A stretch of 64,000 nucleotides of DNA from a virus, in IMG/VR virus record IMGVR_UViG_3300037010_002464; one strand, given 5' to 3'. Positions 36,687 to 63,898 of the stretch are shown piece by piece. The position numbers and the translations under genes are program-made. The notes under the pieces are model-generated. The model was given only the letters and a program-made list of their open reading frames with translations. It made no database searches and was not told where the DNA came from. Positions within the stretch are counted from its first letter, which is position 1. Each line of letters starts with the position of its first letter.

Positions 36687-37003
36687 AGCTAGCTCAGCTG
36701 GTCGAGGACGTTAGCCGTGGGCGGCTGCTCAAGCTGCAGCAATATCTGCTTGACCATCTTCAAGGCAAGTTTGACATCAAGCTTGGAAAGCATGACAACG
36801 GGAAGCTATGCCTGTTCATCACCTACTTCACTATGGGCTTGGAGCCTAAGCTGGAGCTGATTCTCGAGCATGACGGTTGGCAGCTCTACGTGTATGAGAG
36901 CCGAGAGGATGAGTGGCGCGCCGTAACTGGCTCTAACAACAGCCAAGACGATGCTGACATTGCGGCCGAAGTACAGTCCTACACTTACGGCCCGCAAGGC
37001 TAG
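36683..37003 (+). CDS. MKL/LKLQQ-family small protein
   Basis: MKLAQLVEDVSRGRLLKLQQYLLD. Confidence 0.7.
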   Translation: MKLAQLVEDVSRGRLLKLQQYLLDHLQGKFDIKLGKHDNGKLCLFITYFTMGLEPKLELILEHDGWQLYVYESREDEWRAVTGSNNSQDDADIAAEVQSYTYGPQG

Positions 37004-37830
37004 CTCTTGTGCCCACCGTTAGTACTTATGATCATCCAGCCAACAGAATAGCCAACTTCTACTGGCTTTTTTGTTTGCTGTGTTTGAAGCAGTTTTGATA
37101 GACCAAGCTTATTAACCTGACAAAACTCTTTTAACCTCGTTACCGTGATAAATTCGCCGTCAGGTCGTTGTAACGTCCACTCTTTAAGAGCAATGACTTG
37201 CTTAGCACGAAACTCTCGTAGTTTTTGCTTAGTTTCATTAGACCGTTTTTGGCCCGTATTGGCTTTAGCAATTTGATCAATGAGCTCCTTCGGATGAGAA
37301 TATCCTGTAGCTAGCGCTGTCTTCTTTATTGCTGCTTTGTGTTCAGATGACAGAGTTTTACCAGTATGAGCTTTAGAAAGCAGCTCTCTGGTATGCATAG
37401 TCATTACTTTGCCTTTGTGAGCTAATGAAATTTTCTTCTTTGTCTCATCTGATTGCTTCCAGCCGCTAGAATGGGACTTATGTTTTAAACCTCTTCTTAG
37501 TAAAACACTCTGTTCTCTGATGGACTCAAACCATCGGCTCGATCTTGGTAAATATCTTTGATGTTTCAGCGTTGATTTACACATCATAGAAAGAGCAAAC
37601 GCCATCCTTCGCTTGTCATCGCCTTGAGTCATTTTAACAAGTAACACGTGACAAATAAAATGTTCTCGTGCTGTTAACTTGACAATATTTGACTTAAGAT
37701 CGGTGCCACCTAAGGCTTTAGGAAGAATATGATGTTTTTCAACGTATTGGGTCATTGATTCTCTATTCAAAGCTCGATCGACTAGCTTATTATAGAGTGC
37801 AGTATATTTGTTTGATAGAAAGTTATTCAT
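37000..37830 (-). CDS. Free-standing HNH homing endonuclease with NUMOD3 repeats
   Basis: EKHHILPKALGG, NIVKLTAREHFICHVLL; repeated S-ETK-KIS..HKG; AT-rich. Confidence 0.92.
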   Translation of the reverse strand: MNNFLSNKYTALYNKLVDRALNRESMTQYVEKHHILPKALGGTDLKSNIVKLTAREHFICHVLLVKMTQGDDKRRMAFALSMMCKSTLKHQRYLPRSSRWFESIREQSVLLRRGLKHKSHSSGWKQSDETKKKISLAHKGKVMTMHTRELLSKAHTGKTLSSEHKAAIKKTALATGYSHPKELIDQIAKANTGQKRSNETKQKLREFRAKQVIALKEWTLQRPDGEFITVTRLKEFCQVNKLGLSKLLQTQQTKKPVEVGYSVGWMIISTNGGHKS

Positions 37831-39355
37831 GCTACCTATTTACCTTCTTACGGCGGAGCCTAAAAACTTTGTCCCTGTTCAGCTAAAAGCTGAAGCTGAA
37901 AAATTAGGCTATGAATGCACTATCATCGACATTCGCCACACCTTCATCGTCGAGACCACGGGTAAGTCCAAGGTCATGTACAAGGTGGATGACGACAAGC
38001 TGGCCGAGCTGAAGCCGCCGTTTGCATGCATCCCGCGCCTTAACGAGCACCACATCATGTACAAGCTGAACGTGCTTAACCGGCTTGTGGCCGACGGCGC
38101 GTACATGGTCAACACGCCCGAAGCCATGGGTCTGTGTAATGACAAGCTAGGTTCGCAGGTCGCCTTGAACTCCGCCGGAATCCAGACACCGTACAGCACA
38201 GTCATCGGCTCGCTTGACATGCTCGACCTCACCTTGAAGCAGGTTGAGGAGGACGGTCAGCTGAAGTTCCCGATGATCATCAAGACGCTGCGCGGCACGC
38301 ACGGCATCGGCGTTATGAAGGTCGACTCGAAGTCCTCCCTCGTCTCAGTCGCTCAGGCGTTCCTCGCCAACAGCGGCTCCGAGGTGATGCTGCAGGAGTT
38401 CATCGAGCACAAGGAGTCCCTTCGCATCATCATGATCGGCGATGACCTGCTGGCGGCTAACCGTCGTGGTCAGCCGAAGGAGAAGGACGAGTTTCGCACC
38501 AACTCGCACTTGGGCTCCGAGACTGAGAAGTACGAGCCTAACGAGGAGGAGCTGGCGCTCGCTCGCAAGATCGTTGAGCTGTTTGGCGCCCGCTTCTGCG
38601 CGATCGACTATATCCAGCACAATGGCCAGCTAATCGTGCTCGAAGTCAACGGCTCGCCAGGCCTCGAAGCCATCCAGAAGAACTGGGAGGACAAGAACCT
38701 GCCTGAGGCTGTGATCAAGGGCTTGGTTAAGCTGTCAGGCAAGCATGATGCTCCGTTCGTCCCGGGCTCAGGCGAACCGGCGGTGGTCGACGGCATATAC
38801 GACGGTATTCCCGTCTCTGAGCCGAAGATCGCTCCTGAGATCGAACCAGCGGTTCCTAACGGCATTGAGGGTTCCCTCGACGTGCCGCACAATGACGCGC
38901 CGGTGCAAGTAACCCCGAATGTCAACGGTGACCAACCGCTTGGCGACACTGAGCAGCTGGTCATCGTCCGGCTTGCGGACCAAGGCATGCATGCACGAGT
39001 GGACACCGGTGCGGCGTTCTGTTCACTGCACGCCGAAGACGTGGGTGAAACTGGCGGCTGGGTCAAGTTCAAGCGCGACGGCATCACCTACCGCGTGTCG
39101 GTTGACCGTCATGTCAAGATCCGGAACGCTCACGGTAAGTCAACTCGGCCGTTGATCAAGCTTGACATCATCCTGCGGGGTGTCCGCTACAACCAGGTTG
39201 AGTTCTCAGTCACCTCTCGTGCTGACATGAAGTATGACGCTTTGATCGGTCGCAACCTGTTGAAGATCGCAGGCATCCCTGTGCTCGTACCGAATGACGA
39301 TAACCAACGGGCGGCCGACTTGCCACCGTCGGACATCGAGGTCGAAGAGGAATGA
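37829..39355 (+). CDS. rimK: RimK-type ATP-grasp ligase fused to a RimB-like retropepsin protease
   Basis: CNDK, IIKT--GTHGIGV, LQEFI, FRTNSHLG, LEVNGSPG; C-terminal ARVDTGA--CSLHA, RP-I, LIGRN. Confidence 0.9.
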   Translation: MLPIYLLTAEPKNFVPVQLKAEAEKLGYECTIIDIRHTFIVETTGKSKVMYKVDDDKLAELKPPFACIPRLNEHHIMYKLNVLNRLVADGAYMVNTPEAMGLCNDKLGSQVALNSAGIQTPYSTVIGSLDMLDLTLKQVEEDGQLKFPMIIKTLRGTHGIGVMKVDSKSSLVSVAQAFLANSGSEVMLQEFIEHKESLRIIMIGDDLLAANRRGQPKEKDEFRTNSHLGSETEKYEPNEEELALARKIVELFGARFCAIDYIQHNGQLIVLEVNGSPGLEAIQKNWEDKNLPEAVIKGLVKLSGKHDAPFVPGSGEPAVVDGIYDGIPVSEPKIAPEIEPAVPNGIEGSLDVPHNDAPVQVTPNVNGDQPLGDTEQLVIVRLADQGMHARVDTGAAFCSLHAEDVGETGGWVKFKRDGITYRVSVDRHVKIRNAHGKSTRPLIKLDIILRGVRYNQVEFSVTSRADMKYDALIGRNLLKIAGIPVLVPNDDNQRAADLPPSDIEVEEE

Positions 39356-42812: not shown

Positions 42813-43640
42813 TTAGAGTGGCCTCAATTTCGGCTCACCACCGTTGAAGAACTCGGCCACGTTGTCTAGCTGGTGGATGCTGAGCCATTGAGTATCAACG
42901 CGGACCTCATGCCTGGTCACAGGCTCGCCGGCGGCCGGACGCTTGGCCAAAGGGATGCGCTGTCGAACCTCCTCGTCCAGCGGCTTGAGGAAGGAGACAT
43001 GCCGCAGGTAGGCGCCGTTAGTGTAGGTAGGTGGCAGGCTCTCCCAGTCGAAGCCTCGCTCCTTGAGCAGCTCACGACGGTCTTGCATGCTGATGCCATG
43101 CAGCTCACGCTCAGGCGCAACGACACGGGCTGCGGTGCTCACAGCGTTCTTGACCGCGTCCTTCTCACGCCAGGTAAAAGCGTCCAACACGTCCAGCTCC
43201 GTGGGCACCTCCCACATGCGGCAGTCAAAGGCCGGCGGCTCGTTGAGCTCCAAGTAGCGAGTCGGGTCAGTCCGCATCAGGGTATCGAGGAATCGGCCAG
43301 TGAAGGTCGCCGACAGCAGGCTCACGTTCTTCTGCTCACGCATGTTGAACTCGAGCTTGTCACGATGCCAGCAGAAGGTGGCTTCATCAGACTGCACATA
43401 GGCCAAGCGCGGCCGCATCTTTGTGAAGGTACCGGCCGTAGCCTGAATCATGGCTTCGAGGATCCAGGAGTCGACGGGCTTCTGCATGCCCTTTGTGAAG
43501 GTGCTGAATGTACGGCCGTCAACGCGCGCGACAACCCACTCCCAGTCTTGGACAAGCGAGACTCCCGGACGAAAGAAGGAGCGCTCATTAGCCAAGCCCT
43601 CGTAGGCTTTGACCCGGTCACCGAGTGCGTCTGTTTTCAT
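42813..43640 (-). CDS. thg1: tRNA(His) guanylyltransferase Thg1-like 3'-5' polymerase
   Basis: RVK-YE, VARVDGRTFSTFT, YVQSDE, FDCR, WRE-DA-KN. Confidence 0.92.
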   Translation of the reverse strand: MKTDALGDRVKAYEGLANERSFFRPGVSLVQDWEWVVARVDGRTFSTFTKGMQKPVDSWILEAMIQATAGTFTKMRPRLAYVQSDEATFCWHRDKLEFNMREQKNVSLLSATFTGRFLDTLMRTDPTRYLELNEPPAFDCRMWEVPTELDVLDAFTWREKDAVKNAVSTAARVVAPERELHGISMQDRRELLKERGFDWESLPPTYTNGAYLRHVSFLKPLDEEVRQRIPLAKRPAAGEPVTRHEVRVDTQWLSIHQLDNVAEFFNGGEPKLRPL

Positions 43641-44149
43641 TCGAGAGAGTCCAAGTAGTCGTTGTAGGCACGGTGCGCCGAGCGAAGCACGAGCGGCCGC
43701 AGCTTGAGCTTTGACCGCACGTTCTTTGTAGTAAGCTTGCCGGAGCTTAACTTCGTTGCGCCAGAAGGTGTCAACCTTCTTCTGACGCTCTTCGCGCCAG
43801 TGTCGATGAAGTAGCTCTTCCCTACGCGCTCGATGACCTTCATCGCTTCGAATGGGTCAGAGCCGCCGTAGTCGTCCTCGCTGTCCGGGGTGACCGTGAC
43901 AGAGATGGCCATGAGGCCAGCGCCCGCGTCAAATGAGACAGCTAAGGCTGCAGAGTCCTCGTTGCGGAGGAGGTTGTAGCGACCTACGACACGGGTGAAC
44001 CGAGGAGCCTGCTTGATCGGATGATGCTTGGCTTGGAGCATGCGCAGCTGCTCCTTGAACTTGTCACCCTTCGGGACGCCGCTGCCCTGCTCGATGCCGA
44101 AGTCGCACCAGGAATCCGAGCTCACTTGTTGAGTGTCTTCTTGAGCCAT
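43637..44149 (-). CDS. Hypothetical protein
   Basis: Coupled ORF within the cluster. Confidence 0.6.
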
Positions 44150-44481
44150 GCTTCACCACCTTTAGCTTGCAGCTTTTCGTGTTGCCGATAGGTGAGCTCG
44201 GTCGTAAAAGTGACCGTGCTCTTGGTTGTACGGCACCCCCGCTCCCGCAGCGTACCCATTGCCTCGTTGATCAGCTTGACGTAGTCGCCGACGGTCTTCA
44301 CATTCTCGATGTCATCGTCGCTGAGCTCGATACGAAACTCGTCTTCGACAGCCATGACCAGCTCAACCGCATCGAGGCTGTCCAGCATACCGTCGGCTTT
44401 GAGCTTCGAGAGCTGGGTATCAGGCGCTAGCTTAAGCACCTCCTCTGAGTAGCCGGTCTGCTCAAGATGGTCTTGAGCTAG
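44122..44481 (-). CDS. Acyl carrier protein-like (start uncertain)
   Basis: [28 protein letters not shown]; frame open up to the ArfA stop at 44482. Confidence 0.8.
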
Positions 44482-44655
44482 TCAGGTGAGAGAGTCGTCA
44501 TCTGGAATTGCCTTCTTGCGTTCGAATGAGCCCTTACCCTTGCGCTGCCGTTGGATGCGCTGCCGGTACTTGGGCGTTAGCAGGTCACGCGCGATCGGGT
44601 CACGCGGCCTTTGAATCGGGATGACGAGGGTGTTCTCGTCCTTCTCATCAGCCAT
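44482..44655 (-). CDS. arfA: Alternative ribosome-rescue factor A-like (57 aa)
   Basis: Translated by hand: ...DPIARDLLTPKYRQRIQRQRKGKGSFERKK...; missed by the ORF track. Confidence 0.85.
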   Translation of the reverse strand: MADEKDENTLVIPIQRPRDPIARDLLTPKYRQRIQRQRKGKGSFERKKAIPDDDSLT

Positions 44656-45703
44656 GATGATAGACCTTGGTCAAGGCTTCGATGCGAGCATGCTTGAGAG
44701 CCAGGCCGATCTCCTTGCCAGGCAGGCCCAGGAACGGCTCGGCCAGCACGCCGTTGACTGCCTTAACGCCTTGCTCCAGGAGCTCGAGCTCAACAGGATC
44801 TGTGAACACCATGGCTCGACGCACTTGCGCCCACAGGCCACGGGTGGCTCCGGTTTGCTGCATGTCATCGAGCAGGCTGACAGGATTTGAGCGATCCCAT
44901 TTGCGAGTGATCACGTCAAAGGCCTTGACGGTCCCGCCAGGCAGGCCGCGTGCAGCGGCCTCGGTGATACGGTTGACGGCACCACCATGCTTGATCAGCC
45001 AAGCCAGCACTAAGTCAGGCTCTCGAGTCTTGTTGAGCAAAGCTTGGGTGAAGTCGGCGTCCATCGTGCGTAAAGCAGCAAGGCCTTTGACACGGCCGAA
45101 GGCCTTCATGACATAGAGCACCCTGAAGAAACGCATCGGGTCCGGCGTCTCCAAGGCTTTGACCAGCTCAGCCCAGATCCGCTCTTGGGACAGCTCGTTC
45201 AGCTGGCCGTGCTTGATCATGTCCTCGCACAGCTCGATAGTTTCGACGGCGATGTCAAAGTCCGGAAACTTGCCAGCGAAGCGGGCCAGCCGCAGGACAC
45301 GGAGCGGATCCTCGCAAAAGGCTTTGCTCGTGTGCCTCAACACCTTGACTTGTAGGTCACGCCTGCCACTGTAAGGGTCAACCAGCTCCCCTGTCTTCGT
45401 GTGCTTGGCCATCGAGTTGATGGTCAAGTCACGGCGGGCCAGGTCATCCTCAATCGTGACGGTGGGCGCGGCGTCAACCTCGAAGCCGTGATAGCCAACA
45501 GCCACCTTGCGTTCGATTCGAGCCAGCGCCCATTGGTCGCCGTTCTGTGGGTGCAAGAACACCGGAAAGTCGGCGCCGACCTTCTCAAAGCCGAGCTTCA
45601 ACATCTCGGCCTCGGTGGCGCCGGTGACCACGTAGTCATGGTCCGAAGGTGTCAAGCCCAGCAGCTCGTCACGGACTGAGCCGCCCACAGCGTAAACTTC
45701 CAT
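44648..45703 (-). CDS. cca: tRNA nucleotidyltransferase (CCA-adding, class II, no HD domain seen)
   Basis: VGGSVRD-LLG, DHDYVV, VGADFPVF, ALAR-ERK, DL-RRDLTIN, EDPLRVLR-ARF, ER-W-E. Confidence 0.93.
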   Translation of the reverse strand: MEVYAVGGSVRDELLGLTPSDHDYVVTGATEAEMLKLGFEKVGADFPVFLHPQNGDQWALARIERKVAVGYHGFEVDAAPTVTIEDDLARRDLTINSMAKHTKTGELVDPYSGRRDLQVKVLRHTSKAFCEDPLRVLRLARFAGKFPDFDIAVETIELCEDMIKHGQLNELSQERIWAELVKALETPDPMRFFRVLYVMKAFGRVKGLAALRTMDADFTQALLNKTREPDLVLAWLIKHGGAVNRITEAAARGLPGGTVKAFDVITRKWDRSNPVSLLDDMQQTGATRGLWAQVRRAMVFTDPVELELLEQGVKAVNGVLAEPFLGLPGKEIGLALKHARIEALTKVYHHG

Positions 45704-49179: not shown

Positions 49180-51675
49180 CTAGTCGACGATGCGCATCCA
49201 GCATCCCAAGCCTTCATCAACCGTTGAGTTGCCTGACATGGGCATTTGCATTACGGATGTGTCAAATGACAGGATGTAGGGTGTTGTTGTTAAGCCTATA
49301 GGCTGATAGAGACTTTGCTTCCAAAGGATGAGCTGATTGCCAGAGCCGATGGTAAGCGGGTATCCGCCTGTGATAGGTTGCCTAAACACGTCCACTAAGG
49401 GCATGTTTAACGCATATGTCGGACCGTTCGGCGAAACTGCATACCGGCCGTAAGGTTCCATTATGTAGTTGCCGATGGTGTATTGGGCGTTCACTCGCAA
49501 GCCCGTCCGCGACACAGACCAGGTCGTCATATTATCTGTACTGGTGTAGCCGGTATATCGGTTTACGTCATATGTCATCCACGTGTTTGTAGGGATGTGA
49601 TAAACAAGTGACTCGCAAGCGATTGATCCGGCAGCGGTAGACGCTGAAATCTCAGTGAACGAGAGCATGTTTGACGACTTGTAGATGCCATACAAACATA
49701 GCACGTAATAGTCGCTGCCGATCTTCGTGATGTTATTGACCGCGCTAACCGTACCCGTAAGGGTTGTAATAAGCGTCCAGGAAGCACCATGGTTAGTAGT
49801 TTGGTAAACACTCCCGTTATGACCAAGCGCCACAGTGCTAGACGACGACACCGATACAACCCGGTAATTTTGCACGCCAGGGTAATTTGTAGGGTTGAGT
49901 GATGTCGCGGTCAAGGCGCCGGAGGGAGACGTGAACGTGTATACGACACCTTGATTGATGCTGTTTGTTGCGGCCAAGTAATATGTCGAGCCGTCATATG
50001 CGAGGCAACTTTGTGACGGTAAATTCAAGTCAGCATAGGCAACGCCGGCACCCGCAATTGTTTGCGCGACTGTCCATGTAGCGCCTTCATCAGTCGACGT
50101 GATAATACTGATGTCGTTTGTATTCGTGTTTACGTTTACCAACACGATTGTCGAGCCTGTATAGCAAGAGCCTAGGTGAACTGCGCCGAGTGCGGAGCGC
50201 TCGACCACCCCGCAAAAAGTTACATTGACTTTAGGAAATAGCGCCTTCAAGCTAGCTGATGCATTGCTATATGTCGATGAGCCGTCGCACTGTTTAAACT
50301 TGCCCTCAAGCGCAGTGCCATAGCCTGGGTTGTAATCCATGGTAGAATACCCTGGATAGTCTGCCGGGTTTACGTTGTCATCGATTGCGATGTATGAGGC
50401 AGCAAAGTCAGAAAGCTGAGGGAACATCACAAAGCGTGATGGAAACACAGCATATGACTTAGCCTTATCGATTGTGAACTTTTTAAAGAAGCCAACGCCG
50501 ACAGAGGGTGCATTGAACACACCGAACGTCGTGTCATCGAGCGTGACAGCATTGAAGCACAAGGACATAAAGCCTTCATATTGGACATTAAGCGGTGTAA
50601 CTTCAATGCCTGAAGCTTGAAGATTTTCCGTTAAGTCGCGAATCAAAATCCCTGTAACTGTACTATTGCTAAGAGACCCTGTGATCACATATTTGTTTGA
50701 CAAAGCCATCAATGCATTAGCTTCAAAGCCTTGCGCTAAATTTGCGTAGTTCTTGATCGTTGTGAAGTTATCATTAGTGATGTATACAGCGCCGTTTGTG
50801 GCAAGCATGTAAAATGAGTTGCCATATGACTTAAGCGGTCCTGTGAAGTCAGATGCTTGGAAATAGATTGACCCAATCAAATTATGCCTAGTCCATGTAC
50901 CCCCAACGGTAGAATTTGTGAAGAATGCCGTGTAGTTATAGTTGAGATAACTGCTATAGCTGGGAACTGCCGCTACTGCAAGCACTCCCGCGTCATTGAC
51001 AGCAAAGGCCCATGCCTTGCTAATAGTTGAATCAGATGCGTATGACCAAGACACGCAGTCGGATGATGACGCAATTACTGCTGTAGCATTTGTGTTGTAA
51101 GCAGCCGCAAATACATAAAAGGTACCAGCCTTAAAGATGAATTCGGACGTTGTCTGAGACAAGTCAGGTACCGTTACTGTACCTACATATGACCAGCTAG
51201 CCCCTGTTGTAGACGTGTAAATCTCACCCGTAGTAGCGAGGATGTAATAAGCGGCGCTTGTAGCGCATACAGCTGAATACTGCTTATCAGAAACAGTACC
51301 GATTGACCAAGATGAACCGCCGTCCGTCGAATATGTAACTTGAGTGATCGTATCGCTTCCATAGAGGTTATAAGGCACAGCTAAGATCTTTAAGCTGTCT
51401 ATGTTAGCGACCTTCCATTGATAGCCACCCGCAGCTATCGGCAAGGCAACGGAGGTAACAACCTCGGCCTTTTTGTTATAAATCCCAGGGGCGTCAAATG
51501 GCAGCTGTTCTCCTGGCAAGCGAATGCCGCCGTTGTATGCAGTAAGGCTATAGATGCCGTCGCCATAGCTGCCAGTGCGCTTAAACTTGTTGGACGGCGG
51601 AGGCAGAGCAAAATAACTGCTTTCACCCTTGACGCTACGCTTCTTATTTGCTCCGTAAAGGCTCTTATGAGTCAT
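49180..51675 (-). CDS. Tail fibre/receptor-binding protein with Asp-box (BNR) repeats
   Basis: YSTDGGSSW, TSTDEGATW, TTNHGASW, TSTDNMTTW; AT-richer. Confidence 0.65.
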   Translation of the reverse strand: MTHKSLYGANKKRSVKGESSYFALPPPSNKFKRTGSYGDGIYSLTAYNGGIRLPGEQLPFDAPGIYNKKAEVVTSVALPIAAGGYQWKVANIDSLKILAVPYNLYGSDTITQVTYSTDGGSSWSIGTVSDKQYSAVCATSAAYYILATTGEIYTSTTGASWSYVGTVTVPDLSQTTSEFIFKAGTFYVFAAAYNTNATAVIASSSDCVSWSYASDSTISKAWAFAVNDAGVLAVAAVPSYSSYLNYNYTAFFTNSTVGGTWTRHNLIGSIYFQASDFTGPLKSYGNSFYMLATNGAVYITNDNFTTIKNYANLAQGFEANALMALSNKYVITGSLSNSTVTGILIRDLTENLQASGIEVTPLNVQYEGFMSLCFNAVTLDDTTFGVFNAPSVGVGFFKKFTIDKAKSYAVFPSRFVMFPQLSDFAASYIAIDDNVNPADYPGYSTMDYNPGYGTALEGKFKQCDGSSTYSNASASLKALFPKVNVTFCGVVERSALGAVHLGSCYTGSTIVLVNVNTNTNDISIITSTDEGATWTVAQTIAGAGVAYADLNLPSQSCLAYDGSTYYLAATNSINQGVVYTFTSPSGALTATSLNPTNYPGVQNYRVVSVSSSSTVALGHNGSVYQTTNHGASWTLITTLTGTVSAVNNITKIGSDYYVLCLYGIYKSSNMLSFTEISASTAAGSIACESLVYHIPTNTWMTYDVNRYTGYTSTDNMTTWSVSRTGLRVNAQYTIGNYIMEPYGRYAVSPNGPTYALNMPLVDVFRQPITGGYPLTIGSGNQLILWKQSLYQPIGLTTTPYILSFDTSVMQMPMSGNSTVDEGLGCWMRIVD

Positions 51676-52877
51676 TTGATTCTCAGCTTAGCGCCCGAGT
51701 ATTCAGTGGGCATGATGTCTTTTTTGATCAATGAAAAGTCGTGCTTAATAACAACCGAATGAGACGAATTTGAGATTGAATAAAGGTTATCATTAAGCAT
51801 GAACGTTTCATTATAGCCGATGCCTAGCAAAACTCTTGCATTATCGTAGCTAGTCCATGTTTTAAGGTCGTATGACATGTATGGACCAATAACGTAAATC
51901 GCCCGTCCGGTTGAGTCTGTTGTCTTAAACAGCTTGTTAGTCCCAAAAAAGCCTACGGTTGAATTCATTGAATTCAGCCTCACTTTAGTCCAGTTAAGCC
52001 CATCAGCTGACACTAGCATCTGGAGGGTATAAGACATTGATGTCCTGTACGCCGTGAACAGCTGACCGCTTTTATTGTAAGGCAGAGCTTCTACGACCCA
52101 TCCATTTTCGAGCACCTTGGTGAAGGTTGACATGTCCTCTGTGTAATATGCATTGTCAACTATGACCCCCTTTGAAGTTGGGCCGGTACCTGTTATTTTA
52201 AAGCCCACCGGACCTACAATGGGGTTCCTGGTCATCGTCGGCGATGCTGACAATGGCTTATTGATTACTAACGGTATTCCCACTACACCGCTGTCATTCT
52301 TCAAAGTAGTAAAGATCTTTGTTTGAGTAGCTGCTGACTGGATGCCATTGCCATATGATAGCAAAGCTTCTGTGATAGAAATTGTGAATTGCGTCCAACC
52401 CGACAACCCGTCCGCTGAATAGCAGCCAAATGTGCGAGTGTTGACAAAATCATAGCAGAACATTAGGTACTCGCTACCTGTCCATAAAATGCTACCTGCA
52501 AACTGGGTGCTAGCCCACGCAATTGATGATGTCTCCCAATTAACAAAGTCAGCGGTTTTCCAAACTAGCAAATTCGCGCCGCTGGCGTCATAAGTGACTA
52601 GGAGGTATGCAGGGCCACCTATGCATACAATTGCGCCCGGCGCAAGGGTCAAGACATCAGTGCCAGGAACAAACAGCATGGGTGTAGAGTTAACTACACC
52701 GAAGCGCTGCTGTTGCAGCAACGTCATCTTAGACGTGTCAACGGGTTGCCCACCTTGGTTAAGGTCGATCTCGTCAGGATGCGTTAGCATTGAGTAGGTA
52801 AGCTTACCTACTTCACTGTTGGTTACATCGGCTGGATTCTTGTCGCCTCGAAAGCCGATTCGCTGACCCTTATTCAT
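51672..52877 (-). CDS. Asp-box beta-propeller tail-associated protein
   Basis: KTADFVNW, YSADGLSGW, VSADGLNW, MSYDLKTW. Confidence 0.65.
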   Translation of the reverse strand: MNKGQRIGFRGDKNPADVTNSEVGKLTYSMLTHPDEIDLNQGGQPVDTSKMTLLQQQRFGVVNSTPMLFVPGTDVLTLAPGAIVCIGGPAYLLVTYDASGANLLVWKTADFVNWETSSIAWASTQFAGSILWTGSEYLMFCYDFVNTRTFGCYSADGLSGWTQFTISITEALLSYGNGIQSAATQTKIFTTLKNDSGVVGIPLVINKPLSASPTMTRNPIVGPVGFKITGTGPTSKGVIVDNAYYTEDMSTFTKVLENGWVVEALPYNKSGQLFTAYRTSMSYTLQMLVSADGLNWTKVRLNSMNSTVGFFGTNKLFKTTDSTGRAIYVIGPYMSYDLKTWTSYDNARVLLGIGYNETFMLNDNLYSISNSSHSVVIKHDFSLIKKDIMPTEYSGAKLRIK

Positions 52878-54109
52878 CTGACCTTCACGTAAAGGTTGTT
52901 AGCTGTTAAGAGGTCCCAAGTAATTAACGGTACCTGCATAGTAGATGGATCGATGATAACTTCACCGATAAATGGAGCCGTCATGAATTCATCATCCGCT
53001 GAGTATTTAGTATACATGAATGCCCTGCTATTAGCAGCATACACTCCATTCAAAATCATCGGAACTTCGTAAAAGTCATATACTACCGGAACTTGATCTA
53101 GCCCAGCGCTAACTGAAAGCAAGTTTTCGCCTTGGCATGGCACATCGTCATAGCCTGATCGTGCACTAATGTTGACAAAGGCTCTTAACCAATAGCTGCC
53201 TAGGCTCATCACCGGCGAATTTGCACACGCCAATATGTTGTCATCATCTCCCGCGGCTAGATTAAAGGTGCCTGTCCAGGACGTGCCGTTAGCCGATGAC
53301 ATCAGCCTACCATTTCGAGTAGAGACTACCCACGTGCTGTTAACATAGCAGAACGGGTGAGCGCTAGAAGCATATCCGGCACGAGTCCAAGTCACGCCAT
53401 GGTCTGTTGACTTATAGATTTCGGTAGTACCTGGTACGGTAGTTGCTAAAAGCAATGAGCTTGTGCCGCTTACATGCTTAACGTCACGACCGCTAAACAC
53501 CGTTGTCCAAGTTGACCCGTTAGTCGACCTAATCATGCCACCATAATCAGTTTGGTATGAATCATGCTGCATGATGCTAGCGATCCAAGCTGTGCCGTCC
53601 CACAAGAGAGCGCTTATAAGCGCGCCTGTTGAAGCGCAAAAGCCAGTCAGCGTCGAACCTGCAGTCCAAGTTGTACCGGCTGTCGAATATGCTGTATAGA
53701 CGCTGGCGCCAAGCGTGTCGAAGGGTGACCGTTTTCCTATAGCTGTGCCGATTACGACATACTGCGAGCCGTTATAGCCTAGCATACGCCAAACATAGCC
53801 TGTATTTGCAGGCAGTGTAACAGGCGATGACCACGTGATAAAGTCGGTTGTTGTTGAAAATTGAGTAGCGCTTATAGCCGCCCACAACGACCCTGTCCAA
53901 ATGATGTCGACAACCAAGAACGGGGTGAAGTGCTGTTTAAGCGTGATCTTGGGATAGATCCTCTTAAGATCCGCAGGTGCATTCGTAACATAGGTCTTTT
54001 GACCCATCACGGGTGCATAGTCCTTGTTCTGATAGTCGATGCCGTAAGTCAGCTTGCCAAAGCCGACAATAGGCCTTGCGCCTGCACCCGCAAACACACC
54101 CTTGTTCAT
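52874..54109 (-). CDS. Asp-box beta-propeller tail-associated protein
   Basis: RSTNGSTW, KSTDHGVTW, SSANGTSW. Confidence 0.65.
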   Translation of the reverse strand: MNKGVFAGAGARPIVGFGKLTYGIDYQNKDYAPVMGQKTYVTNAPADLKRIYPKITLKQHFTPFLVVDIIWTGSLWAAISATQFSTTTDFITWSSPVTLPANTGYVWRMLGYNGSQYVVIGTAIGKRSPFDTLGASVYTAYSTAGTTWTAGSTLTGFCASTGALISALLWDGTAWIASIMQHDSYQTDYGGMIRSTNGSTWTTVFSGRDVKHVSGTSSLLLATTVPGTTEIYKSTDHGVTWTRAGYASSAHPFCYVNSTWVVSTRNGRLMSSANGTSWTGTFNLAAGDDDNILACANSPVMSLGSYWLRAFVNISARSGYDDVPCQGENLLSVSAGLDQVPVVYDFYEVPMILNGVYAANSRAFMYTKYSADDEFMTAPFIGEVIIDPSTMQVPLITWDLLTANNLYVKVR

Positions 54110-61814: not shown

Positions 61815-62074
61815 AAGTCCCTGAAGCCTTCCTTGGCACGGCCGAGCTTCAGCTCATACAGCGTACGTACCTTCTCGAGCGCAGCGATGAAGAACTCCTT
61901 GCCCACCTTGCCAAGCTCGAGGTTGAAGTTGACGTCGATTGACATTTGCGGATCGAAGACTTCAGGTTGGCGCTTGGCGCATTCTAGAGCTTCATCAAGG
62001 CGGCGGATATTGACCGATTGACAGTTAATCTCTTCCTTGAGGGCGAGGGCTTCAGCGAGGGTTTCGTTATTCAT
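61811..62074 (-). CDS. Small coiled-coil protein
   Basis: Tandem paralog with overlap coupling. Confidence 0.65.
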   Translation of the reverse strand: MNNETLAEALALKEEINCQSVNIRRLDEALECAKRQPEVFDPQMSIDVNFNLELGKVGKEFFIAALEKVRTLYELKLGRAKEGFRDL

Positions 62075-62354
62075 AGTTTAGCAGCTGTTTTGGTGGGTTA
62101 AGCAGTTCTAGAAGCACGTCGCCGTGGCATGCCTTAGGCGCACAGTGGCAAACAAGCCACTTGCCGCGAAGCTCTTCAAGCTGTCCTAGGAGCTCTGGGT
62201 TATTCAACAGGTAGGTGCGGTACTTTTCGATGACTACCGTCCTCGTGCCGTCCTGGCCAAGGATGAACGGGTTGCCCCACTTCCCGGGCCGCCCGATATA
62301 GACCGAGTTGAGGGGCGCGGGCCCATCCTTCAAGTTTACTAGCGAGCGGCTCAT
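62067..62354 (-). CDS. DUF4326-family protein
   Basis: VYIGRP-KWGNPF, R--VIEKY, EL-GK-L-C-CAP-ACHGDVL. Confidence 0.85.
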   Translation of the reverse strand: MSRSLVNLKDGPAPLNSVYIGRPGKWGNPFILGQDGTRTVVIEKYRTYLLNNPELLGQLEELRGKWLVCHCAPKACHGDVLLELLNPPKQLLNYE

Positions 62355-62601
62355 GCGGTGTATACGGGTGGTGCTTAGGCTTGATATCAAGCAAGGGTAC
62401 ATAAGGGCAATAGAAATAGCCGTCGGCTATCGGGCCATCTTTTGCCTTGTACCCTAATGCTACTATCTCTTCAAGAGCTTCCTCGATTGCTTCAGCTGCC
62501 GCTCGAGCAATTTCCTCGCTCAAGATCCTAGCAATTTCGTCCTCGAGATCCAGGCCATGCTCTTGCTGCTCTTGCTTTAGATCTTGCACCTGCTCGTCCA
62601 A
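62200..62601 (-). CDS. Small protein with major-capsid (gp23-like) motifs
   Basis: QDLK...HGLD-E-EIA-IL-EEI and GYFYCPYVPL. Confidence 0.55.
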   Translation of the reverse strand: MDEQVQDLKQEQQEHGLDLEDEIARILSEEIARAAAEAIEEALEEIVALGYKAKDGPIADGYFYCPYVPLLDIKPKHHPYTPHEPLASKLEGWARAPQLGLYRAAREVGQPVHPWPGRHEDGSHRKVPHLPVE

Positions 62602-62662
62602 TTAGCCTTAAGCTTACGCGGAGCCACTTCGATTGACCAGGAGCTTATGCTGAAGGTTGACA

Positions 62663-63898
62663 TCAGAAGCTAATCAGCTTGCTCTCGCCGTTGATCTTAT
62701 CAACGGTATGCTTGAAGTTGTTCTGCCAGACCACGTCGCCGTCGGTAAACGGTAGCCGACCTTCGAGGTAGTCAACCACACCGCGAGTCATGTCCGAAGC
62801 CGTGCAGACTGGGACATTCTGGCAGATGTGGTTGATGGTCTTCGTCACGAGGTTGAAGTCGTTTGGCAGGGCCATCATGTGCAGGCACTCACGGATGGTC
62901 AGCGAGCGGTGCTCATACGGGTGAGCCGCATCGGTGGTCCGACCGATCAGGGCGTTGAAGTTGACCTCAGGTAGGAAGATGGACGGCGAGTCGTCCCAGA
63001 TGCCCTTGTCCTCAACAAACATCTTGTGATGGATGCGGTCAAAGTAGGCCGCGGCGCGCGGGTCAGCCGCAGCTTGCGCAGGCTCGGAATACCAGTCACG
63101 CATCTCTTTTGGCCGCTCGGGAGCCTTCGGGTCCTTCAACACAAAGTCTTGAACGGTCACCATCGTCTTGCCCTGCTCACGCATCCGCTCACGGATCACG
63201 TCAGGGAAGCCTTCGCCGAAGCGTGCGTGGGCAAACTTGGCGAAGCGAGTGGAGCGCAGCTGCTTGTAGGCGCGTTCCTTGTCGTCATCATGCTGGGTAG
63301 CGCCGGCCGGGATCTGAGCCATATACTCGCCCCAGGTTGGAGCCTGCTTGTGGTAGTACGGCATGACCGGCACGCGGCCTTGCTCGCGCCAGAAGAAGTA
63401 GAACGTGCGGTGACGCCGTTGCGGCACTCCATGCAGGTGGGTGCTGGTGAAGTAGAACGACATCGTGTAGCCGTTGTCGTCGGCGATCTGCTTGAGGCGC
63501 TCACGGACAGACTCGCCGAGCTTGCTCTCATACATCGCAGGAGCGTTCTCGCCCCAAAAGACCTTCGGCTTTAGCGTGCCGAGCACGTGCTTCGCTGAGG
63601 CAAACATCCAGCTGTTGGCGTTCTCACGCATCGTCGCATCGCCGGTGCCCAGCGTGGACAGGCCGGCACACGGGCAGAGAGCCGTGATGAAGTCAGCACC
63701 GGCGAGAGCAGCTTGGTCGCCGCCGTCATCCAGCACCTCATAAGGAACCTGCGGCATGTAAGCGCGGAGGTTCTTCTCATTGTCGGCGAAGGCCTTGTAG
63801 GTCAGCAATGCTTCAGGATCATAACCTAGCACGTTCCTCGCGGCAATCGTGTTCCCACCGATAAGAGGGACAATACTGCCGTATCGGTATATAGTCAT
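62663..63898 (-). CDS. DNA cytosine-5 methyltransferase (phage type)
   Basis: CPCAGLS (IV), GENAP (VI), HGVPQ-R-R (VIII), R-LTIRE (IX), QNVP (X). Confidence 0.85.
   Translation of the reverse strand: MTIYRYGSIVPLIGGNTIAARNVLGYDPEALLTYKAFADNEKNLRAYMPQVPYEVLDDGGDQAALAGADFITALCPCAGLSTLGTGDATMRENANSWMFASAKHVLGTLKPKVFWGENAPAMYESKLGESVRERLKQIADDNGYTMSFYFTSTHLHGVPQRRHRTFYFFWREQGRVPVMPYYHKQAPTWGEYMAQIPAGATQHDDDKERAYKQLRSTRFAKFAHARFGEGFPDVIRERMREQGKTMVTVQDFVLKDPKAPERPKEMRDWYSEPAQAAADPRAAAYFDRIHHKMFVEDKGIWDDSPSIFLPEVNFNALIGRTTDAAHPYEHRSLTIRECLHMMALPNDFNLVTKTINHICQNVPVCTASDMTRGVVDYLEGRLPFTDGDVVWQNNFKHTVDKINGESKLISF

Follow-up and report, generated by a model that had tools for sequence, protein, structure and literature searches.

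The minus strand of a large phage genome carries, between a gene for a C5 cytosine DNA methylase and one for a DUF4326 protein, about 310 bases (positions 62355..62663) of sequence related to the gene for gp23, the T4-type major capsid protein. We consider that the stretch is what is left, in a state of decay and without function, of a gp23-derived gene formerly situated between these two neighbours, and put the probability of this reading at about 0.7. All positions are those of the window, i.e. the whole stretch of 64,000 nucleotides from IMG/VR record IMGVR_UViG_3300037010_002464 that was analysed.

The window contains genes for a family B DNA polymerase, a primase, a DnaB-type helicase, an exonuclease and the ribonucleotide reductase subunits NrdA and NrdB, and derives from a large T4-like phage that is uncultured. 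Among cultured phages, Ralstonia phage RsoM2USA is the nearest by its polymerase (42%), and the window DNA was found in microbial-mat and sediment metagenomes. The methylase gene (62663..63898, minus strand; Pfam PF00145, 2.8e-19) lies immediately upstream of the remnant, and its TGA stop codon (62663-62665) overlaps the ATG with which the remnant begins, forming TGATG. Immediately downstream is the DUF4326 gene (62067..62354, minus strand; Pfam PF14216, 1.1e-23), starting at ATG 62354 (MSRSL...), a start that is conserved in L008, a contig whose methylase shows 88% amino acid identity. It is followed on the same strand by two small open reading frames (ORFs) and nrdA. Strong purifying selection acts on both genes flanking the remnant, with dN/dS values of 0.09 for the methylase (compared with that of L008) and 0.035 for DUF4326, at dS values of 0.9-2.3. 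A role for DUF4326 proteins in the processing of ADP-ribose derivatives during virus-host conflicts has been proposed (PMC9503650). There is a promoter-like site upstream of the methylase gene, with no terminator between there and the ORF described below; the T4 late-promoter motif TATAAATA was not found in the window.

Elsewhere in the window, positions 37000-37830 (minus strand) hold a homing endonuclease gene (PHROG 655, 8.7e-41) in a patch of low GC content (0.49 versus 0.55), adjoined by a gene for a RimK-like 'S6 glutaminyl transferase' (37808-39355). The block from 50000 to 54000 is also of low GC content (0.46-0.48), and includes large ORFs of 831, 401 and 411 aa that have no PHROG match. 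Genes for a tRNA-His guanylyltransferase-like protein and a CCA-adding tRNA nucleotidyltransferase lie close together on the minus strand at 42813-45703, which suggests a tRNA repair or maturation module.

Most of the remnant falls within an ORF of 133 aa on the minus strand, running from TTG 62601 to a stop codon at 62200-62202. It contains no ATG, and its TTG start follows immediately upon an in-frame TAA, with the sequence AAGG four bases 5′ of the TTG. The preliminary description had placed a mini-protein at 62385-62601. Its upper limit corresponds to the TTG; at the other end there is no stop codon at 62385, and the frame remains open to 62200-62202. Neither boundary is that of the capsid-derived sequence, which reaches 62663 in another frame, while the part of the ORF below 62354 is DUF4326 sequence read out of frame.

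The homology with gp23 was examined in several ways. Two motifs are evident, EQVQDLK...HGLDLEDEI...SEEI of the spine helix at 62509-62595 and DGYFYCPYVPL at 62392-62424, both on the minus strand and separated by 28 residues. The ORF is matched in two stretches by the Pfam Gp23 model (PF07068) with a score of 27.0 bits, above the gathering cut-off of 24.4, and matches PHROG 138 'major head protein' with an E value of 2.8e-6. The longer matches to it in a collection of 5.8 billion proteins (194 out of 194) are to members of the Gp23 family, PF07068. A custom gp23 hidden Markov model (HMM), constructed from 229 full-length proteins, was run on all 2317 stop-to-stop pieces of the window. It matched the ORF with an E value of 1.2e-9 and no other piece significantly, covering positions 175-205 and 318-348 of its 398. 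Both motifs align with bona fide T4-type capsid proteins (GYFYCPYVPL is identical to the gp23 consensus at 10 of 10 positions), and the A domain of about 130 residues that should separate them is absent. On the strength of these sequence comparisons the homology with gp23 is real rather than a product of chance. The two motifs are thus where the preliminary description had put them, and the profile match whose absence it would have taken as a refutation is significant.

A search of the window for a full-length gp23, both by tblastn and by applying the HMM to the stop-to-stop pieces, found none. The sequence present corresponds to HMM positions 155-205 and 318-348 of 398 only, and so does not amount to a complete HK97 fold with N-arm, E-loop, P domain and A domain. 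Nor is it an intact ORF within a head module of portal, protease, scaffold and major capsid protein genes, of the kind seen in the contigs L020 and L026 that were used for comparison; it is frameshifted, and has methylase, DUF4326 and ribonucleotide reductase genes as neighbours. Within the window it was therefore correct to describe it as far from any capsid operon and set among non-structural genes. The Protein Atlas returned generic Gp23 clusters only, which we take as a lead and no more. One candidate for the capsid protein of this phage, P0019, was rejected; the contigs that encode it have a GC content of 35%, and their tetranucleotide composition correlates with that of the window at -0.2.

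The remnant can be divided into three pieces, all on the minus strand. The first (62595..62663), in what we term frame A, comprises the ATG and 22 further codons ending ...RKLKANWT, and corresponds to the strand that precedes the spine helix in gp23. Frame A is closed by a stop codon at 62577-62579, giving an ORF of 28 aa. Four full-length gp23 proteins used in tblastn searches match 62657..62595 with 38-43% identity, collinear with the second piece. Once the ORF is set aside, no part of the window matches the gp23 HMM better than the frame-A piece (30 aa), which covers HMM positions 155-174; the match in frame A ends at position 174 and that of the ORF begins at 175. The second piece (62464..62595), in frame B, encodes the spine helix of the gp23 P domain (HGLDLEDEI..., HMM 175-205), as seen in the alignment to P0006, P0143 and P0124. 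The third (62355..62463), also in frame B, contains ...LGYK...GYFYCPYVPL... (HMM 318-348), and is matched in tblastn by gp23 residues ~401-452; this is the P-domain strand that comes after the A domain in full-length gp23. The A-domain deletion junction is at 62463/62464, and by tblastn and alignment the remnant as a whole covers gp23 residues ~213-275 and ~401-440.

The change from frame A to frame B occurs within 62594..62601, as located by three-frame translation and by alignment with an X placed at the break. The break (near 62596-62600) implies that 1 or 4 bases of an ancestor with an intact frame have been lost, and the frame-B TAA and subsequent TTG of the 133-aa ORF lie inside this site. 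The match to gp23 thus continues upstream in the other frame as far as the ATG at the methylase stop codon, indicating a single former ORF that has been frameshifted. The out-of-frame piece is 43% identical to gp23, and the in-frame pieces are 36-37% identical. Since the out-of-frame piece is as similar as those in frame, the conservation does not depend upon the present ORF, as would be expected if it predates the frameshift. The frameshift is not an error of assembly. The sequence from 62000 to 62846 is identical, with 0 differences and 0 gaps, in separately built contigs of four runs at 11-18x word depth, although the runs are flagged as ones from which the window itself may have come, and their independence is thus incomplete.

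The last 51 codons of the 133-aa ORF (62200..62354, minus strand) are not capsid-derived but are the DUF4326 gene read out of frame. The GC content by codon position in this tail is 0.86/0.51/0.43, the pattern of an out-of-frame reading, and the matches to it in P0123 and P0126 are themselves alternative-frame readings that overlap the DUF4326 genes of their own contigs. The long overlap with DUF4326 was considered as a sign of function and rejected, because in a simulation of synonymous recoding an alternative frame of the DUF4326 gene was open for at least 51 codons in 27% of cases. The capsid-derived part of the ORF, ~82 codons that are still open, has a GC content at third codon positions (GC3) of 0.51, compared with 0.76 for ten confident genes of the window and 0.70 for DUF4326. 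An AlphaFold2 (AF2) model of 83 residues of the ORF comprises one long helix over residues 3-55 together with disorder (pLDDT 66). For P0124, an intact protein discussed below, the corresponding value is 54. Both models are too poor for a fold search, and as predicted neither looks like an independently folding domain.

The corresponding locus in related phages contains different parts of gp23. In L008 a 164-aa ORF lies between the methylase and DUF4326 genes, starting at the same TGATG. It contains only gp23 residues 1-98, which are 53% identical to those of P0006, a genuine capsid protein, and after the gp23 part it runs out of frame into DUF4326. In L009 and L010 (methylase 76% identical) only gp23 residues ~239-272 have been kept. 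In L017 and L018 (methylase ~70% identical) nrdA lies directly beside the methylase gene and the cassette is absent (L017:2780-3000 and L018:4206-4420); the gp23 remnant, DUF4326 and the two small ORFs are consequently an insertion or a variable block. When the DNA of the relatives is aligned the gene ends are conserved on both sides, with nothing alignable between them. The window, L008 and L010 therefore hold three different and largely non-overlapping leftovers of a gp23-like gene between constrained flanks, which is the signature of decay rather than of conserved function.

We note that the ORF of L008 (L008:1446-1940) encodes the gp23 N-terminus including a Gol-like region; its GC3 of 0.72 is normal for that genome, and it may still be coding there. 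In L009 and L010 the cassette is followed by a gene for a class II-type ribonucleotide reductase of 635 aa (L009:1894-3801 and L010:1757-3664), where the window has the class I nrdA.

The preliminary description had looked for support to conserved small homologues under purifying selection. Neither a search of 5.8 billion clustered proteins nor one of 1.84 billion representative proteins gave a homologue that agrees with the ORF in size and architecture, so that by the refuting condition set in that description the decoy reading fails for this copy. The phages of INPHARED gave no match to the locus by megablast or tblastn, and in IMG/VR there was no relative of the ORF, only methylases of 38% identity that lack the cassette.

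The deletion of the A domain does, however, occur in an intact form. Three proteins from metagenomic T4-like contigs, P0124 (223 aa), P0127 (255 aa) and P0128 (238 aa), are 58-65% identical to each other over their full length; their genes include L003:519-1190, L004:1720-2391 and L015:357-1073. Each begins with the gp23 N-terminal region, including a Gol-like stretch, and continues with a short linker and then the strand and spine helix. The helix is followed directly by ...L[GH]YK...FYCPYVP, and the protein ends in a short tail that is conserved, so that on alignment the junction is identical to that in the window. P0124 gives the best match to the window ORF in a single stretch (43-45% over 65-70 aa, extending across the junction). 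The presence of this same A-domain-less junction in an intact family of 223-255 aa is new here, and we found no description of truncated gp23 paralogues or capsid-fragment decoys in the literature searched. The genes adjoin that for the gp55 late sigma factor and clamp-loader genes, outside the head module. Between P0124 and P0128 dN is 0.24 and dS is 1.06 (dN/dS 0.23), and P0124, P0127 and P0128 constitute an intact gene family under purifying selection. The contigs that carry them are short, so that a coexisting full-length gp23 is not demonstrable from them. When IMG/VR was scanned with P0124, full-length capsid genes (33-38% identity) swamped the matches, among which no further mini relative appeared. 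By sequence the window copy looks like a decayed relative of a paralogue of this type, although a common junction could also arise repeatedly by way of the microhomology LALAG / ILVG.

A second, separate piece of gp23 lies just upstream of P0124 in L004, in a 218-aa ORF (L004:1067-1723) in which 26 aa match residues 212-237 of P0006 (73% identity) and are followed by unrelated sequence. Its counterpart in L003 (L003:1-522) is split in two.

A plausible course of events begins with an ancestor at this locus that would have been a paralogue of the T4-type major capsid protein. The A domain would have been lost already in that ancestor, or else by deletion at the recurrent microhomology (LALAG / ILVG). 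This lineage would then have lost everything from the start codon to about residue 213, and in a later step have acquired the frameshift after ...KANWT. The probable result is two reading frames, i.e. the ORF of 28 codons, translationally coupled to the methylase, and the TTG-initiated ORF that by chance reads on into the beginning of DUF4326. Of gp23, just the best-conserved motifs can still be recognised, and this is why the element appears to be stitched from two motifs. The deletion relic that was offered as an alternative in the preliminary description fits the internal deletion, the frameshift, the atypical GC3 and the non-overlapping pieces in relatives. The homology, the deletion junction, the frameshift, the overlap with DUF4326 and the lack of conservation among relatives are direct observations, and what we infer is the sequence of the steps and that function has been lost.

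A number of observations argue against a simple relic. Both large deletions are in frame and the original start codon has been kept, the ~82 capsid-derived codons remain open behind the AAGG and TTG with their motifs almost intact, the methylase and DUF4326 are neighbours of a counter-defence type, and the related intact family under purifying selection indicates that such an architecture can be useful. From these one could propose that a functional mini-protein, comprising a TTG-initiated spine helix and one P-domain strand, is expressed early from the methylase operon as a capsid mimic. Judged by its sequence it may divert, as a decoy, a defence sensor that binds to this region of gp23, or act as a dominant-negative partner of the phage's own or a competitor's capsid proteins. 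Expression with the operon is consistent with the promoter-like site upstream of the methylase and the absence of an intervening terminator, and a role in counter-defence with the accessory neighbourhood (PMC9503650). We nevertheless think this unlikely for the window copy. The homology continues upstream out of frame, and the GC3 of the capsid-derived codons is atypical. The close relatives retain non-homologous pieces with no conserved counterpart of the mini-protein, and AF2 predicts no independent fold. The Gol region is missing, which excludes a decoy of the Lit type (PMC3014915), one of the roles that the preliminary description had envisaged. A decoy for a capsid sensor of another type (CapRel, Avs or TIR) is compatible with the sequence, though improbable. 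Nothing positive favours the decoy or assembly-poison reading, and given the frameshift, the codon composition and the lack of a conserved homologue of the same size it is not supported for this copy.

A broader proposal is that the remnant and the intact proteins belong to an undescribed lineage of A-domain-less gp23 paralogues made of N-arm and P-domain elements, located among early or accessory genes and acting as capsid mimics, with the TTG-initiated peptide of the window still active. These would be, for example, decoys for capsid-sensing immunity or poisons of competitor head assembly. Taken as a whole, including the activity of the window peptide, we regard this as improbable.

Alternatively the frameshift could be bridged in translation. 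If the ribosome shifted frame near 62596-62600 a protein of ~104 aa would be produced from ATG 62663, coupled to translation of the methylase. The homology is continuous across the break, and the ATG overlaps the methylase stop codon in TGATG as at the intact start in L008. However, the site (GCT AAT TGG ACG) lacks both a slippery heptamer and any evident stimulator, it was found in no relative, and loss of 1 or 4 bases is the outcome of a simple mutation; programmed recoding is thus very unlikely. Least probable of all, with hardly any likelihood, is a silent donor cassette, in which partial gp23 copies serve as gene-conversion templates that vary the capsid epitopes sensed by host defences; L004 also has two separate gp23 pieces, but there is no evidence of recombination, and at 36-50% protein identity to any known gp23 the relic is too diverged for homologous exchange unless the phage's own capsid gene is much closer.

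By itself the feature in the window amounts to a commonplace gene remnant within a variable accessory region, and for this copy the idea of a decoy should be dropped. Three copies of a single locus, each eroded in its own way (window, L008 and L010), illustrate clearly how fast such genes are lost. The value of the remnant is that it points to A-domain-less gp23 paralogues that are intact, syntenic and under purifying selection in one clade. Should the mini-gp23 proteins turn out to work as capsid mimics, they would form a new class of accessory proteins in phages, with a bearing on immunity that senses capsids or on the way phages compete with each other.

The remnant may be compared with several known systems. 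Its relationship to gp23 and gp24 (PF07068, HK97 fold) is one of significant collinear homology, taking in the pre-helix strand, the spine helix and the GYKG...FYCPYVPL strand, and the vertex protein gp24, itself a paralogue of gp23, provides a precedent for the duplication of gp23. By contrast with the full protein of 400-520 residues the remnant has ~100, and lacks the N-terminal propeptide, Gol region, insertion domain, A domain and C-terminal strands; it is also frameshifted and outside a head module. With the mini-gp23 family it shares the joining of the end of the helix to ...L[GH]YK... and a location among genes of replication and transcription rather than those of the head. The family is intact, with the N-terminal propeptide, Gol-like region and conserved C-terminal tail, whereas the window copy is broken and has none of these; the former adjoins gp55, while the latter has the methylase and DUF4326 as its neighbours.

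The closest parallel to an HK97-fold fragment surviving as a separate gene is provided by the Family 4 'A-domain' encapsulins, truncated cellular HK97-fold proteins that consist of the A domain only and are associated with enzymes (10.1101/2021.03.18.436031). In the window remnant, by contrast, it is the A domain that is missing. A short segment of gp23 that is active on its own, the model for a capsid-sensing target behind the preliminary description, is exemplified by the Gol peptide of T4 gp23, which triggers the Lit protease and belongs to the first quarter of gp23 (PMC3014915). The window remnant starts at about residue 213 and so does not include Gol, whereas the L008 ORF and the P0124 family both contain the equivalent region.
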